From the IMG/VR virus record IMGVR_UViG_2778261536_000007: a stretch of 8,910 nucleotides of DNA; one strand, 5' to 3'. Below are positions 1,907 to 7,271 of the stretch, in pieces; within the stretch, counting starts at the first letter, position 1, and the number at the start of each line of letters is the position of its first letter. Origin of the DNA: a virus. Taxonomy: Duplodnaviria; Heunggongvirae; Uroviricota; Caudoviricetes. The notes beneath the pieces are model-generated. The model searched no databases. It saw only the letters and a list, made by a program, of their open reading frames with translations, and was not told the origin of the DNA. Position numbers and translations under genes: made by a program.

Positions 1907-2408
1907 AATTCCATCCAGCTTTTTGTTGGTATTGCTGTCGATACGCAAGCTTGAAAGCAATTGCTTTTTCTATAAGTTCGTCAGTTTCACGATCCACTAC
2001 GGCAGGATCAGCAAAAAGCAGTCCGGACTCCACCACATCGCCATATTCTTTGTTTAACCCGGCGATCATGCACGTGATGCTTTTTCCGTCAGTAATTTCA
2101 CGATACAACCTGAAATCACTAATCCGGATAGCCTCCATAATCGCAGGCACTAGCGCCGTGAACTTTTCACGCTTATCCCTGGTGTCGATAGCCTTCCAGC
2201 GTTCGAATATCTTCACTCGATTAACACCAAGCGCTCGCTGATCAACCGCGCCACCTTCATCTGTGACACGCTGAACATCGATGTTCGGGCGCTCTTTCAA
2301 AGCCCAGAATGCTTCAGTGATTAATATCGTCGCCTGCTCCTGTGTCATTCCTGGTCGACATATCCAGGCATCCAGAGCCTCACGAGCCTGTTCAGGAGTG
2401 ATTTTCAT
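1887..2408 (-). CDS. Hypothetical protein (173 aa) in the cII position downstream of cro-like dicC
   Basis: ATG start at 2408. Overlaps the dicC stop by 17 nt and the replication gene start by about 20 nt. Function unknown; slot corresponds to cII/YdaT-like regulators. Confidence 0.5.
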   Translation of the reverse strand: MKITPEQAREALDAWICRPGMTQEQATILITEAFWALKERPNIDVQRVTDEGGAVDQRALGVNRVKIFERWKAIDTRDKREKFTALVPAIMEAIRISDFRLYREITDGKSITCMIAGLNKEYGDVVESGLLFADPAVVDRETDELIEKAIAFKLAYRQQYQQKAGWNYEPSFC

Positions 2409-2619
2409 TGTTCAACCGCCCCGCCCGCTTCGTCTTACGATATTCATCATAAACTTTGGGATCATACTGAAGCTCCCCGCCAGATGCCTCCTGTAGACGC
2501 ATCGCGCGACCTTCAGGAACCAGTATCCCCCAAGCAGCAACACTTGCCAGCCTCACTCCTGCGGCATTGGCAAGCTTTGTTTTGCTGCCAAAAAAAGTAA
2601 TTGCGTCAACTTTAAGCAT
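2392..2619 (-). CDS. dicC: Cro-like HTH regulator DicC
   Basis: Small HTH protein (GSKTKLANAAGVRLASVAAWG) divergent from the repressor gene. ATG at 2619 follows a strong SD (AGAGGGGG, 5 nt spacer). An in-frame TTG at 2622 would give 76 aa. Confidence 0.75.
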   Translation of the reverse strand: MLKVDAITFFGSKTKLANAAGVRLASVAAWGILVPEGRAMRLQEASGGELQYDPKVYDEYRKTKRAGRLNNENHS

Positions 2620-2631
2620 CAAAGCCCCCTC

Positions 2632-2651
2632 TTGTTAGACTTTTCTAACAT
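2632..2651. promoter_or_regulatory. Operator palindrome TTGTTAGA-N4-TCTAACA in the dicC/dicA divergent promoter region (OR-like)
   Basis: Near-perfect inverted repeat in the 80-bp intergenic region. Same motif recurs at 3142-3163. A degenerate copy may lie at about 2684-2698. Confidence 0.65.
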
Positions 2652-2699
2652 TATTGTGCGCGGGATACCTAAGTCAAGAAAAATTAGAATTACCTAACT

Positions 2700-3107
2700 A
2701 TGGATACAAGAACCCTGGGCCAGCGAGTTCTGGCGCGACGAAAAGAATTACGCTTAACACAACGAGAAGCCGCGCGCCTCGCTGGAGTTGCTCACGTCAC
2801 AATTTCACAATGGGAAAGAGACGAAACCCAGCCAGTCGGAAAACGATTGTTTGCTTTAGCGGATGCTCTGAAGTGCTCACCTACATGGCTAATGTTTGGT
2901 GACGAAGACAAGGCACCAGTGCCTGCACAAGAACTTCATGTGGAAACAGAGCTAACTCCCAACCACAAAGAATTGATCGAATTATTCGATGCTCTTCCAT
3001 CTTCCGAGCAGGAAGCCTTGCTGTCTGAAATGCGCGCAAGAGTAGAAAACTTCAACAAACTCTTCGAAGAAATGCTTAAAGCGCGTAAAAATAAATCAAT
3101 AAAATAA
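2700..3107 (+). CDS. dicA: XRE-family HTH repressor DicA (cI-like, 135 aa)
   Basis: Classic HTH_3 domain (LTQREAARLAGVAHVTISQWE). 135 aa matches DicA. No SD upstream of the ATG; a TAGAAT -10-like hexamer at 2685-2690 suggests a leaderless transcript. Confidence 0.85.
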   Translation: MDTRTLGQRVLARRKELRLTQREAARLAGVAHVTISQWERDETQPVGKRLFALADALKCSPTWLMFGDEDKAPVPAQELHVETELTPNHKELIELFDALPSSEQEALLSEMRARVENFNKLFEEMLKARKNKSIK

Positions 3108-3141
3108 CATTCTTTTCAAGTGATTAGTTGCGCCCACCCTT

Positions 3142-3163
3142 TTTGTTAGATCAATCTAACAAA
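3142..3163. promoter_or_regulatory. Operator palindrome TTTGTTAGA-tcaa-TCTAACAAA upstream of the dicB operon (OL-like)
   Basis: Perfect 9-bp inverted repeat with 4-bp spacer, same motif as at 2632-2651, lying between the dicA stop and ydfA. Confidence 0.7.
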
Positions 3164-3169
3164 AAACAC

Positions 3170-3198
3170 TTGCCTCTCATGTTAGGTTATTCTAAATT
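3170..3198 (+). promoter_or_regulatory. Candidate sigma70 promoter of the dicB operon (-35 TTGCCT, 17-bp spacer, -10 TAAATT)
   Basis: Hexamers with 17-bp spacing just downstream of the operator; a degenerate operator half-site pair (TGTTAG...CTAAA, 3180-3196) overlaps the -10. Confidence 0.4.
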
Positions 3199-3275
3199 AT
3201 TTTCCATCAAGACACCGCACGGTGTTCTCAGCAAACAGTTCCGCTACCCCGGCGTTAAGGGGAAATGAGGTCAGC

Positions 3276-3431
3276 ATGGATACTATCGATCTTGGCAACA
3301 GCGAATCTCTGGTATGTGGCGTGTTCCCCAACCAGGACGGTACGTTCACCGCGATGACGTATACCAAAAGCAAAACGTTTAAAACCGAAAATGGTGCCCG
3401 TCGCTGGCTGGAAAGAAACCCAGGTGAGTGA
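3276..3431 (+). CDS. ydfA: Small acidic protein YdfA (51 aa)
   Basis: ATG at 3276 preceded by GAGG (5 nt spacer); the track ORF from 3222 starts on GTG with no SD. Size and position match first gene of the Qin dicB operon. Confidence 0.7.
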   Translation: MDTIDLGNSESLVCGVFPNQDGTFTAMTYTKSKTFKTENGARRWLERNPGE

Positions 3432-3432
3432 T

Positions 3433-3561
3433 ATGGATTTCGACACAATCATGGAAAAGGCTTACGAAGAATACTTCGAAGGTCTTGCCGACGGCGAAGA
3501 AGCTCTCAGCTTCAACGAATTTAAACAGGCGCTTTCCAGTTCGGCAAAATCTAACGGCTGA
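3433..3561 (+). CDS. ydfB: Small protein YdfB (42 aa)
   Basis: Not in the ORF track (too short). ATG at 3433 follows AGGTGA with 5 nt spacer. Upstream stop overlaps (TGAtATG). Translation MDFDTIMEKAYEEYFEGLADGEEALSFNEFKQALSSSAKSNG. Confidence 0.6.
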   Translation: MDFDTIMEKAYEEYFEGLADGEEALSFNEFKQALSSSAKSNG

Positions 3562-3590
3562 TAAGCGAAACAGCACCGCGAGGAATCAGT

Positions 3591-3809
3591 ATGCAGAAAC
3601 GAGAACCCGTCATCATCGCGCCAGACTATACCGATGATGAACTTTATGAGTGGATGCGCCAGAAAATTAATGCAGCGCAGGATTTGAAATGGGCCAATGA
3701 AACCAGGGCTAAGCAGGCTGAAAATCTGTCCGCTCTGGAGCAGGATATCACCAATCTGGAAAAAGCAGCGGCATTAAGCATTGCCAGAATGATTACATAC
3801 CCGCGTTAG
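3591..3809 (+). CDS. ydfC: Small protein YdfC (72 aa)
   Basis: ATG preceded by GAGGA with 6 nt spacer. Size and position match ydfC of the Qin dicB operon. Confidence 0.7.
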   Translation: MQKREPVIIAPDYTDDELYEWMRQKINAAQDLKWANETRAKQAENLSALEQDITNLEKAAALSIARMITYPR

Positions 3810-4149
3810 TAGCTAATCAACAAAGCTAAGGTTAGTAATTAAGGAGTTCTCCACGGGTGAGGTGGAGTGCGTGCGCCGGACACGGGTGAGCATCCGGCAC
3901 TGACAGTTTACTGAAAGGATATTTCCCTGAAAAGTCAGACCATAACGCGAAAGCGCACGGCGAGGTAGCTGGTTCATAGATAGCCTGTCGTTAAATTTTC
4001 GTCGACCGTGCGCTTCCGGTTGTGGCAACCCGCGAAATGGCGCGGCGGTAAGTATGGCGGGGTTATTCCTTCCCCGTTGAGGACACCGGGTTGTCAGGTT
4101 GACCATACGCTTAAGTGACAACCCCGCTGCAACGCCCTCTGTTATCAAT

Positions 4150-4202
4150 TTTCTGGTGACGTTTGGCGGTATCAGTTTTACTCCGTGACTGCTCTGCCGC
4201 CC
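4150..4202 (+). ncRNA. dicF: DicF small regulatory RNA (53 nt), processed from the dicB operon transcript
   Basis: Sequence TTTCTGGTGACGTTTGGCGGTATCAGTTTTACTCCGTGACTGCTCTGCCGCCC matches DicF as I remember it. It sits between ydfC and dicB with no protein-like ORF and ends in a GC-rich stem plus T-run. Confidence 0.7.
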
Positions 4203-4207
4203 TTTTT
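4165..4207 (+). terminator. Rho-independent terminator-like 3' end of DicF (GGCGG...CCGCC stem followed by TTTTT)
   Basis: GGCGG (4165-4169) can pair with CCGCC (4197-4201), directly followed by TTTTT (4203-4207). Read-through is needed to express dicB downstream. Confidence 0.45.
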
Positions 4208-4376
4208 AAAGTGAATTTTGTGATGTGGTGAATGCGGCTGAGCGCACGCGGAACAGTTAAAACCAAAAACAGTGTTATGGGTGGATTCTCTGTATCCGGC
4301 GTTAATTGTTAACTGGTTAACGTCACCTGGAGGCACCAGGCACTGCATCACAAAATTCATTGTTGAGGACGCGATA

Positions 4377-4565
4377 ATGAAAACGTTATTACCAAACGTT
4401 AATACGTCTGAAGGTTGTTTTGAAATTGGTGTCACTATCAGTAACCCAGTATTTACTGAAGATGCCATTAACAAGAGAAAACAAGAACGGGAGCTATTAA
4501 ATAAAATATGCATTGTTTCAATGCTGGCTCGTTTACGTCTGATGCCAAAAGGATGTGCACAATGA
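4377..4565 (+). CDS. dicB: Cell-division inhibitor DicB (62 aa)
   Basis: ATG at 4377 preceded by GAGGA with 7 nt spacer; the longer track ORF from 4272 has no start signal. Translation MKTLLPNVNTSEGCFEIGV... and 62-aa length match DicB. Confidence 0.8.
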   Translation: MKTLLPNVNTSEGCFEIGVTISNPVFTEDAINKRKQERELLNKICIVSMLARLRLMPKGCAQ

Positions 4566-4846: not shown

Positions 4847-5104
4847 ATGAGTAAAGTCTTTATTTGCGCCGCTATTCCTGACGAACTGGCAACAAGGGAA
4901 GAAGGCGCTGTGGCTGTAGCCACAGCCATTGAAGCTGGCGACGAACGCCGTGCTCGAGCAAAATTTCACTGGCAGTTCCTGGAACATTATCCGGCTGCTC
5001 AGGACTGCGCTTATAAATTTATTGTCTGCGAGGATAAACCTGGCATACCCCGCCCTGCCCTCGATTCATGGGATGCTGAATATGCAGGAAAACCGCTGGG
5101 ATGA
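4847..5104 (+). CDS. Hypothetical small protein (85 aa) preceding the exonuclease gene
   Basis: ATG with GAGG about 10 nt upstream. Its 3' end overlaps the beginning of the long exonuclease ORF in another frame. Confidence 0.55.
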   Translation: MSKVFICAAIPDELATREEGAVAVATAIEAGDERRARAKFHWQFLEHYPAAQDCAYKFIVCEDKPGIPRPALDSWDAEYAGKPLG

Positions 5105-7271
5105 GGAGTCTGCTTCTTTTGTCCCGGTTGAGACTGAATCCGATCCGATGAACGTCACTTTTGACAAGCTGGCCCCTGAAGTACAGAACGCTGTCATGGT
5201 TAAGTTCGACACATGTGAAAACATCACCGTTGATATGGTTATTAGCGCACAGGAATTGTTGCAGGAAGACATGGCAACATTCGACGGACATATCGTTGAA
5301 GCGTTGATGAAAATGCCAGAAGTTAACGCCATGTATCCGGAGCTTAAGTTGCACGCCATTGGGTGGGTTAAGCATAAATGTATTCCTGGTGCTAAATGGC
5401 CCGAAATTCAGGCAGAGATGCGCATCTGGAAAAAACGTCGCGAAGGTGAACGCAAGGAAACCGGAAAATACACGTCTGTTGTTGATCTCGCCCGCGCCAG
5501 AACCAATCAACAGTACACTGAAAATTCAACAGGAAAAATCAGCCCGGTCATTGCTGCCATTCATCGCGAATACAAGCAGACATGGAAAACACTGGATGAC
5601 GAACTGGCCTACGCTCTCTGGCCTGGTGATGTGGATGCCGGAAACATTGACGGCAGCATCCATCGCTGGGCAAAAAAAGAAGTTATCGACAACGACCGCG
5701 AAGACTGGAAGCGTATCTCGGCATCAATGCGCAAACAGCCTGATGCCCTTCGCTACGACCGCCAGACTATTTTTGGCCTTGTCCGTGAGCGTCCGATCGA
5801 CATTCACAAAGATCCCATAGCACTGAACAAATATATCTGCGAATACCTGACGACAAAGGGCGTGTTTGAGAATGAAGAAACAGACCTGGGCACTGTTGAT
5901 GTTCTCCAGTCATCAGAAACACAAACTGATGCAGTGGAAACTGAGGTATCTGATATCCCAAAAAATGAAACCGCGCCGGAAGCTGAACCATCTGTAGAGC
6001 GTGAGGGGCCGTTCTATTTCCTCTTCGCAGATAAGGACGGAGAAAAATACGGTCGCGCAAACAAACTTTCTGGTCTGGATAAGGCACTGGCTGCTGGCGC
6101 CACTGAAATCACAAAAGAAGAATATTTTGCCCGAAAAAATGGCACATACACGGGCTTACCGCAAAATGTAGATACCGCTGAAGATTCAGAACAACCAGAG
6201 CCGATAAAAGTTACCGCTGACGAAGTAAACAAAATTATGCAGGCAGCCAATATCAGCCAGCCTGACGCCGATAAGTTGCTTGCTGCATCACGTGGTGAAT
6301 TTGTTGAAGGGATTAGTGACCCGAATGATCCGAAATGGGTTAAGGGGATCCAGACCCGCGATTCTGTGAACCAGAACCAGCATGAATCGGAACGGAACTA
6401 CCAAAAAGCGGAACAAAACAGCACAAATGCGTTACAAAACGAGCCAGAAACGAAACAGCCTGAACCAGTGGCGCAACTGGAAGTGGAAAAAGTCTGCACC
6501 GCCTGCGGTCAGACCGGCGGCGGCAACTGCCCTGATTGTGGCGCGGTGATGGGCGACGCAACATACCAGGAAACATTCGATGAAGAGTATCAGGTTGAAG
6601 TTCAGGAAGATGATCTGGAGGAAATGGAAGGCGCTGAACATCCACACAAGGAGAACACTGGCGGCAATCAGCATCACAATAGCGATAATGAAACTGGCGA
6701 GACGGCAGATCACTCAATTAAGGTGAACGGTCATCACGAAATCACATCCACCAGCAGGACGTGTGACCATCTAATGATCGACCTTGAAACCATGGGAAAA
6801 AATCCTGATGCCCCGATCATCTCAATAGGTGCAATATTTTTCGATCTGGAAACTGCTGGCGGAGTCATTGATCGGGACACCATTAAATGGTGGCTTAAGC
6901 AATCACGCGAAGCGCAATCTGCCATTATGACCGATGAAATCCCGTTAGATGATGCACTGTTACAATTGCGGGAATTTATCGACGAAAACTCCGGTGAATT
7001 TTTTGTTCAGGTTTGGGGAAATGGAGCCAACTTCGACAACACGATTTTGCGCCGTTCATACGAACGGCAGGGGATCCCCTGCCCGTGGCGTTACTACAAC
7101 GATCGCGATGTACGCACAATCGTTGAGCTGGGGAAAGCCATAGACTTCGATGCCAGAACGGCTATTCCATTCGAAGGTGAGCGCCATAATGCACTTGATG
7201 ACGCCCGTTACCAGGCAAAATACGTTTCAGTTATCTGGCAAAAACTGATCCCGAGTCAGGCTGATTCTTAA
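5082..7271 (+). CDS. RecE-like protein (annotated in databases as exodeoxyribonuclease VIII) with C-terminal DEDDh (DnaQ/RNase T-like) 3'-5' exonuclease domain
   Basis: Track ORF 4929-7271 starts on TTG inside the upstream gene; first in-frame ATGs are 5073 and 5082. Middle segment DKLLAASRGEFVEGISDPNDPKWVKGIQTRD resembles E. coli RecE as I remember it. C-terminal about 170 aa carry DEDDh motifs: DLETMG, WGNGANFDN, HNALDDARYQ. Confidence 0.75.
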   Translation: MQENRWDEESASFVPVETESDPMNVTFDKLAPEVQNAVMVKFDTCENITVDMVISAQELLQEDMATFDGHIVEALMKMPEVNAMYPELKLHAIGWVKHKCIPGAKWPEIQAEMRIWKKRREGERKETGKYTSVVDLARARTNQQYTENSTGKISPVIAAIHREYKQTWKTLDDELAYALWPGDVDAGNIDGSIHRWAKKEVIDNDREDWKRISASMRKQPDALRYDRQTIFGLVRERPIDIHKDPIALNKYICEYLTTKGVFENEETDLGTVDVLQSSETQTDAVETEVSDIPKNETAPEAEPSVEREGPFYFLFADKDGEKYGRANKLSGLDKALAAGATEITKEEYFARKNGTYTGLPQNVDTAEDSEQPEPIKVTADEVNKIMQAANISQPDADKLLAASRGEFVEGISDPNDPKWVKGIQTRDSVNQNQHESERNYQKAEQNSTNALQNEPETKQPEPVAQLEVEKVCTACGQTGGGNCPDCGAVMGDATYQETFDEEYQVEVQEDDLEEMEGAEHPHKENTGGNQHHNSDNETGETADHSIKVNGHHEITSTSRTCDHLMIDLETMGKNPDAPIISIGAIFFDLETAGGVIDRDTIKWWLKQSREAQSAIMTDEIPLDDALLQLREFIDENSGEFFVQVWGNGANFDNTILRRSYERQGIPCPWRYYNDRDVRTIVELGKAIDFDARTAIPFEGERHNALDDARYQAKYVSVIWQKLIPSQADS

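Follow-up and report, generated by a model that had tools for sequence, protein, structure and literature searches.

The repressor gene of a Qin-type E. coli prophage is flanked, on both sides, by copies of one palindromic operator. These copies are non-random, overlap predicted promoters, are conserved among relatives, and change with the repressor. Our analysis concerns a stretch of 8,910 nucleotides, hereafter called the window, and loci related to it. A sequence-only reading of this DNA had noticed the two-sided arrangement, and that observation is confirmed. The same reading proposed that one repressor controls two promoters, in the manner of lambda. This is supported by the layout, by conservation on both sides, and by the way in which sites and recognition helix change together. 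Note that the evidence supports a model already published for K-12 Qin, with a textbook architecture. Since the layout is described for that prophage, the finding is real but ordinary. What we add is that the two-sided arrangement holds across Enterobacterales, shifting together with the recognition helix, and that the frequent window allele departs from K-12 at inner operator positions. The four sites are very probably the operators of a lambdoid immunity region.

We refer to the sites as O1 to O4 (Table 1). The sequence TTGTTAGA-N4-TCTAACAA has 16 specified bases. All 16 are matched by O3, which reads TTGTTAGA-TCAA-TCTAACAA and sits within a perfect inverted repeat (I6, with 12-nt arms at 3140-3151 and 3154-3165). 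This corresponds to the second site of the earlier reading, placed there at 3142-3163. The first, O1, reads TTGTTAGA-CTTT-TCTAACAt and matches 15/16. Here, the exact palindrome stops at 2650, and base 2651 is T rather than the consensus A. Hence, the start given for this site was right but its end was one base generous. Degenerate extra copies had also been mentioned, and these are real; O2 and O4 each match 11/16 specified bases. The centres of O1 and O2 are separated by 49 bp, those of O3 and O4 by 36 bp, and those of O1 and O3 by 511 bp. Only two sites were recognisable in each spacer.

As the earlier reading had suggested, the motif was scanned with mismatches and the counts compared with shuffled sequences. 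Allowing up to 3 mismatches, the 20-mer has 3 matches in the window, compared with 0.04 expected, and none of 200 shuffles reached 3. Similarly, the core TTAG-N6-CTAA occurs 4 times, where 0.10 is expected, and 0/200 shuffles reached 4. All four cores are located next to the repressor gene, two in the spacer on each side of it. In strain 17MR471, 19.2 kb of this prophage contain no fifth core. The sites are thus far above chance. A match at 411-430 (TTGTCAGACTTATCGAACCA) was set aside as a chance occurrence; it is within a methyltransferase gene, has 3 mismatches, and does not include the TTAG/CTAA core.

Table 1. Operators, predicted promoters and genes of the immunity region, in window coordinates.
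Feature	Position	Strand	Basis or remark
O1, strong operator TTGTTAGACTTTTCTAACAT	2632-2651	.	motif scan; K-12 Oc by position
O2, weak operator-like copy AAATTAGAATTACCTAACTA	2681-2700	.	K-12 Oa by position
O3, perfect operator TTGTTAGATCAATCTAACAA	3143-3162	.	extended palindrome 3140-3165
O4, weaker operator ATGTTAGGTTATTCTAAATT	3179-3198	.	
Predicted dicC-like promoter, PR-like	2650-2677	-	consensus scan, 10/12 matches
Predicted dicA -10 TAGAAT, PRM-like	2685-2690	+	invariant positions in 15 loci
Predicted dicB-operon promoter, PL-like, dicBp equivalent	3170-3198	+	conserved pattern
dicC-like cro gene, P22_Cro family	2392-2619	-	75 aa from ATG at 2619
dicA-like repressor gene, 135 aa, HTH_3	2700-3107	+	Pfam and homology
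Start of repressed operon, ydfA to dicB	3276-4565	+	
ydfA (DUF1391)	3276-3431	+	
ydfB	between ydfA and ydfC	+	after ydfA
ydfC	3591-3809	+	
DicF antisense RNA, full-length, between ydfC and dicB	4151-4202		Rfam RF00039, 76.7 bits
dicB	ends 4565	+	annotated in identical strain
ydfD, exonuclease gene, xis, int	further 3'		

The window is from a Qin-type E. coli prophage. It is 100% identical to E. coli 17MR471, where it adjoins rspB, the position of Qin in K-12, and where ydfA-D and dicB are annotated. The repressor and cro-like genes are divergent, 80 bp apart, and have one shared control region. The cro-like protein is 86% identical to K-12 DicC and the repressor 57% identical to K-12 DicA. Hence, the gene label used in the earlier reading holds for a DicA homologue but not for K-12 DicA itself. 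For the 135-aa repressor, accession WP_000381212.1, Pfam shows only HTH families, with no Peptidase S24 autocleavage and dimerisation domain. K-12 DicA likewise has none (PMC10448788). Pfam also places a YdaT-like gene in the gene context. When a query spanning 2300-3500 was compared as DNA, K-12-type loci matched it in the flanks only (59% coverage). Among 5,426 complete E. coli genomes, 562 have a place covering at least 80% of this query, which we read as a window-type region. Roughly one complete E. coli genome in ten has the window-type repressor allele, which occurs at Qin and also at other loci.

Some parts of the prophage are disrupted or differ from K-12. The exonuclease gene 3' of ydfD (4847-7271) is split into overlapping ORFs, at 4847-5104 and 4929-7271, and is annotated in the identical strain as a frameshifted pseudogene with a 3'-5' exoribonuclease domain. 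Upstream of the window, the 17MR471 prophage is interrupted by IS1 and ISEsa1 (L002 1-6800). In K-12, the gene order is rem-hokD-relE-relB; near relBE in 17MR471, neither rem nor hokD is annotated.

Both predicted early promoters are overlapped by sites. The predicted dicC-like promoter has a -35 element TTGACT (2677-2672), a 16 nt spacer, and a -10 element AATAAT (2655-2650), with transcription starting at about 2643. O1 covers the last 2 nt of this -10 element and includes the predicted start. The sequence AGTCAA, from the -35 region, is nearly invariant in a 15-locus alignment. On the other side of the repressor gene, the predicted dicB-operon promoter consists of TTGCCT (3170-3175) and TAAATT (3193-3198), with a 17 nt spacer and a start at about 3205 or 3206, in a conserved CCATCAA. 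This promoter scores 8/12, under the threshold of the consensus scan, by which it was not called. About 17 loci, which belong to several genera and include K-12 (TTGACC ... TAATCT), keep the pattern TTG-N20-TAANNT, then CCATCAA. O4 occupies the spacer and the -10 element. Note that the right half of O4 (C-TAA-ATT) doubles as the -10 hexamer TAAATT; hence, the operator is degenerate. O3 ends 8 bp upstream of the -35 element.

The dicA promoter is less obvious. In K-12, it was described as not recognisable (PMC3441716), and another report found no site for RNA polymerase in the region that it covered (PMC7567609). No variation was seen at T2685, A2686, A2689, T2690, A2696, or A2697 in the 15 aligned loci, some of which have other operator specificities. 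These bases point to a -10 element, TAGAAT, and to a start at A2696 or A2697, which would give a leader of 3-4 nt. There is no good -35 element upstream of TAGAAT and no Shine-Dalgarno sequence before the ATG at 2700. From this, we infer a weak, PRM-like promoter, and the sequence suggests a nearly leaderless dicA mRNA, resembling that made for lambda cI from PRM. The conserved -10 element and nearly leaderless start may explain why K-12 studies missed the promoter.

O2 overlaps this predicted -10 element, and its last base is the A of the dicA start codon. A serious possibility, though somewhat doubtful, is that the true operators are limited to O1, O3, and perhaps O4. In that case, O2 would essentially be the dicA -10 element and the start of transcription and translation, with an operator likeness that is incidental or vestigial. 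Consistent with this, TAnnAT and the AA located 6-7 nt downstream are invariant in the 15 loci whatever the operators, and the equivalent K-12 site, Oa, did not bind DicA in vivo, nor did the other weaker site, Om (PMC3441716). However, the exact TTAG-N6-CTAA core is kept at O2 in every window-type and K-12-type locus. Furthermore, in relatives with ATTGAG-type operators, the O2 position reads ATTAAG-ATAT-CTAAAT, only one change per half-site from their own operator. A role in regulation is also indicated by K-12 DicC, which binds the dicC-dicA spacer and represses dicA 48- to 84-fold (PMC11430063). All the same, O2, overlapping the conserved -10 element beside the dicA start, is probably a promoter element no less than an operator, and may be mainly a promoter.

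We return to the reading in which all four sites are operators. It is highly likely that O1 serves to occlude the dicC promoter, that O4 together with O3 does so at the dicB-operon promoter, that DicC shares the sites, and that O2 is used to shut off dicA. The repressor would bind TTGTTAG(R)-N4-(Y)CTAACAA as a dimer. Bound to O1, it would cover the edge of the -10 element and the start of the leftward dicC promoter, blocking RNA polymerase. Bound to O4, it would occlude the spacer and -10 element of the rightward ydfABC-dicF-dicB promoter. The perfect O3, just upstream of the -35 element, probably loads repressor cooperatively onto the weaker O4; at about 3.4 helical turns, the O3-O4 spacing is not clearly in phase for such cooperation. 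Silencing of both early promoters by one protein would parallel the action of lambda cI at OR and OL. DicC, the cro-like protein, would act on the same sites as the repressor. O2 is the likely place for DicC, or excess DicA, to shut off dicA in the manner of lambda OR3. Operator binding by the window allele is predicted from its K-12 homologue, which binds Oc but shares only 57% identity with it.

Binding of K-12 DicA to Oc represses dicC and is also needed for dicA expression (PMC3441716). Possibly, this reported activation is an indirect effect. O1 is centred about 55 bp upstream of the predicted dicA start, and only 7 bp separate the -35 element of the dicC promoter from the dicA -10 element. 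Given this short gap, a polymerase on the strong dicC promoter would presumably also occupy the dicA promoter.

The K-12 record bears on which protein uses the sites. Operators at dicCp and dicBp, like those at lambda PR and PL, are attributed to K-12 Qin by Bejar 1988, as cited in PMC10448788. By ChIP-seq, DicC occupies one site either side of dicA, with a TTNG...CNAA motif in which the right half is C(G/A/T)AA (PMC11430063). Direct in vivo occupancy on both sides has been shown for DicC only (PMC11430063). As presented in PMC7567609, the RegulonDB entry for DicA at K-12 dicBp is low-evidence with a binding location that is not known, and in that account the location is not experimentally established. 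These data would fit a situation in which DicC alone uses the sites, and the repressor controls the dicB-side promoter indirectly or elsewhere. We consider this very unlikely. DicA itself binds the same palindrome in vivo at Oc, which is TTGTTAGTCATAACTAACAA, and one A-to-C change in the CTAA core abolishes this binding (PMC3441716). In K-12, dicBp is derepressed 22-fold on deletion of dicA, and deletion of dicC has no effect (PMC10448788). The palindromes on both sides also co-vary with the recognition helix of the repressor.

The 3140-3165 palindrome could, in principle, act in RNA rather than DNA, as a hairpin terminating dicA. Its distance from the dicA stop codon is 33 nt, and its folding energy is -12.2 kcal/mol (z = -3.3). 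In addition, we detected no intrinsic terminator after the dicA stop and before the dicB-operon promoter (3108-3142). However, AAAAAACAC rather than a U tract comes after the AU-rich stem, and for lack of such a tract O3 was rejected as a terminator. Moreover, its sequence matches that of O1, which has a different transcript context. In L088 and L111, a separate GC-rich terminator precedes the equivalent site. Hence, we rate a terminator, in place of a protein site, as a shade less probable even than exclusive use by DicC. Those two loci, and other relatives, have a clear GC-rich hairpin and T run after the repressor gene. In the window, with no dicA terminator detectable, read-through into the toxic operon would need to be prevented by another mechanism.

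The window can be compared with known systems. It shares with K-12 Qin the chromosomal locus, the order dicC, dicA, ydfABC, dicF, dicB, a repressor of 135 aa, the outer half-sites TTGTTAG...CTAACAA, and the positions of sites relative to -35 and -10 elements and start codons. The Oc-type sequence TTGTTAG-N6-CTAACAA is present between dicC and dicA, with one mismatch at the last base. In contrast, operator positions 8/13 are A/T in the window and T/A (or C/G) in K-12-type sites. The distal dicB-side site is perfect and the proximal site degenerate, whereas K-12 has the reverse. Finally, the window has no recognisable counterpart of the middle site, Om.

Similarly, lambda has divergent repressor and cro genes around one operator cluster, and a second cluster on a promoter 3' of the repressor gene, pointing the same way. 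In both cases, a cro-like protein shares the sites, and the repressor gene has a weak promoter and a transcript with almost no leader, both of them predictions for the window. However, lambda has three sites per cluster, rather than two recognisable ones, its clusters are 2.4 kb apart instead of 511 bp, and the window repressor is without the S24 autocleavage domain. Residues 1-71 of the window repressor match the DNA-binding domain of P22 C2 (E = 1e-18; PDB 1adr, 2r1j). Helix-3 residues V33, S36, Q37, W38, E39, and R40 are identical, and both repressors have dyad-symmetric operators of 18-20 bp. The two differ in that the C-terminal part of the window repressor is short and not cleavable, and in that its operator is TGTTAG-N6-CTAACA, where P22 C2 recognises ATTTAAG-N4-CTTAAAT. 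Short repressors from lambdoid prophages, without an Ala-Gly/S24 module, are also found among the Gifsy-type and Rem-DicA systems, where antirepressors control repressors that are not SOS-cleavable. K-12 DicA has no cleavage site and is antagonised by Rem (PMC10448788). Unlike in that system, no gene for this antirepressor is annotated in 19 kb of the identical prophage of 17MR471.

Conservation was assessed on genome contigs. Scanning IMG/VR with the repressor protein alone gave only near-identical loci, which have no comparative power. Searches with a family alignment gave 57 loci from species-representative genomes, of which 39 are full-length. These cover Escherichia, Citrobacter, Buttiauxella, Enterobacter, Pantoea, Serratia, Rahnella, Rouxiella, and other genera. 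Counting from the repressor start, the 55 exact TTAG-N6-CTAA cores of the 39 loci are all placed in one of two intervals, -88 to -10 or +432 to +547, and hence only in the two flanking spacers. In almost every locus, the upstream 20-mer has its first base at position -69 or -70 relative to the ATG of the repressor; the downstream site is 35-40 nt past the stop codon. Central operator bases vary freely between species; half-sites and positions are kept. We also did the reverse, starting from 80 IMG/VR contigs with an exact TTGTTAG-N6-CTAACAA. A DicA homologue was at most 70 bp from the motif in 29 of these and farther away in none. The other 51 contigs have no homologue and reflect the matches to be expected by chance in so large a collection.

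Where the recognition helix differs, so do the sites. Relatives with ISLWES or FKWEN, rather than ISQWER, have different palindromes, and have them on both sides of the repressor gene, for example ATATTGAG-N4-CTCAATAT and TTGTTGAG...TAAACAA. Thus, VSGSSISLWES and VSDSSISLWES helices occur with ATATTGAGTTTTCTCAATAC upstream and ACATTGAGTTTTCTCAATTT downstream, ISHATISLWES with TTGTTGAGTTTATTTAACAA and TTGTTGAGTTTTATCACCAA, and VSYASISLWES with TTGTTGAGAATGTTAAACAA and TTGTTGAGTTTTCTAAACAT, respectively. For KSSVSVFKWEN, upstream and downstream sites are both of the ATAACT/AGTTAT type. The repressor and its cro-like partner change their recognition helices together. We conclude that, although some flanking bases are alike among three of the four sites (25-nt direct-repeat family D1), chance matches or functionless remnants of a local duplication are effectively refuted as the origin of the repeats, since the counts were reached by no shuffle, central bases diverge when half-sites and positions are kept, and the sites change together with the repressor.

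The inner operator positions vary on a finer scale. We compared 85 distinct combinations of repressor and site, using 2632-3198 of the window, 3338-3910 of L001, and other loci. Across these, half-site position 8 follows the recognition helix. It is a purine in 73/76 cases for the GVAHVTI clade, to which the window belongs, and mostly a purine for other V(A/S)HVTISQWE groups. In the KISHVSV clade, which includes K-12, it is a pyrimidine in all 56, and one GISHVSV locus adds 4. The window operators do not have the K-12-type pyrimidine. Residues 30, 34, and 35 track the difference, and residue 49 (R or N) does not. Note that these sequences are related by descent; hence, the correlation is suggestive rather than proof. 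It is possible, and we put this forward tentatively, that the window allele has a distinct immunity specificity, beyond being a diverged copy of K-12 DicA. If so, the DicA family would have a readable operator code. HVTISQW would pair with TTGTTAG-purine, HVSVSQW (K-12) with TTGTTAG-pyrimidine, and ISLWES helices with (T)TTGAG-type sites. The two common E. coli alleles would then not cross-repress each other's promoters.

Downstream of O4, the 5' leader of the ydfA/dicB transcript (3205-3270 in the window, 3905-3975 in L001, and about 17 other loci) is conserved across genera, and this persists in loci with other repressors and operators. Its form is CCATCAA ... CAC(N)GTG ... CTCAG ... invariant GTTC(C/T)G, followed by a hairpin. 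The leader has no Rfam match, even at E = 10, and no second copy within the window, and a literature search found no paper on such an element. An HK022-type put element was considered and rejected, there being no sequence similarity to the HK022 PL/putL region. RNAalifold predicted no structure from a MAFFT alignment of the leaders, in which the hairpins are out of register. When sequences were folded one by one, the second hairpin kept its pairing with different stems: CCCC/GGGG, CCCUG/CAGGG, GCCU/AGGC, ACCC/GGGU, GUUCG/CGAAC, AUCUG/CAGAU, and GCGU/ACGC. The loops are GGCG(A/U)UAA or G(G)AAAGA, of which the latter resembles boxB. The leader could be nut- or put-like, or some other cis-acting RNA, at the PL-equivalent promoter.

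The same dicC/dicA/ydfA/dicB module is present in a sequenced live phage, mEp460 (L260 1679-2740). Hence, the module is not confined to cryptic prophages. The mEp460 repressor is of the VSGSSISLWES type, with ATTGAG-type operators, whereas the phage and window leaders share 98% identity. Immunity cassettes are thus swapped while the leader stays constant.
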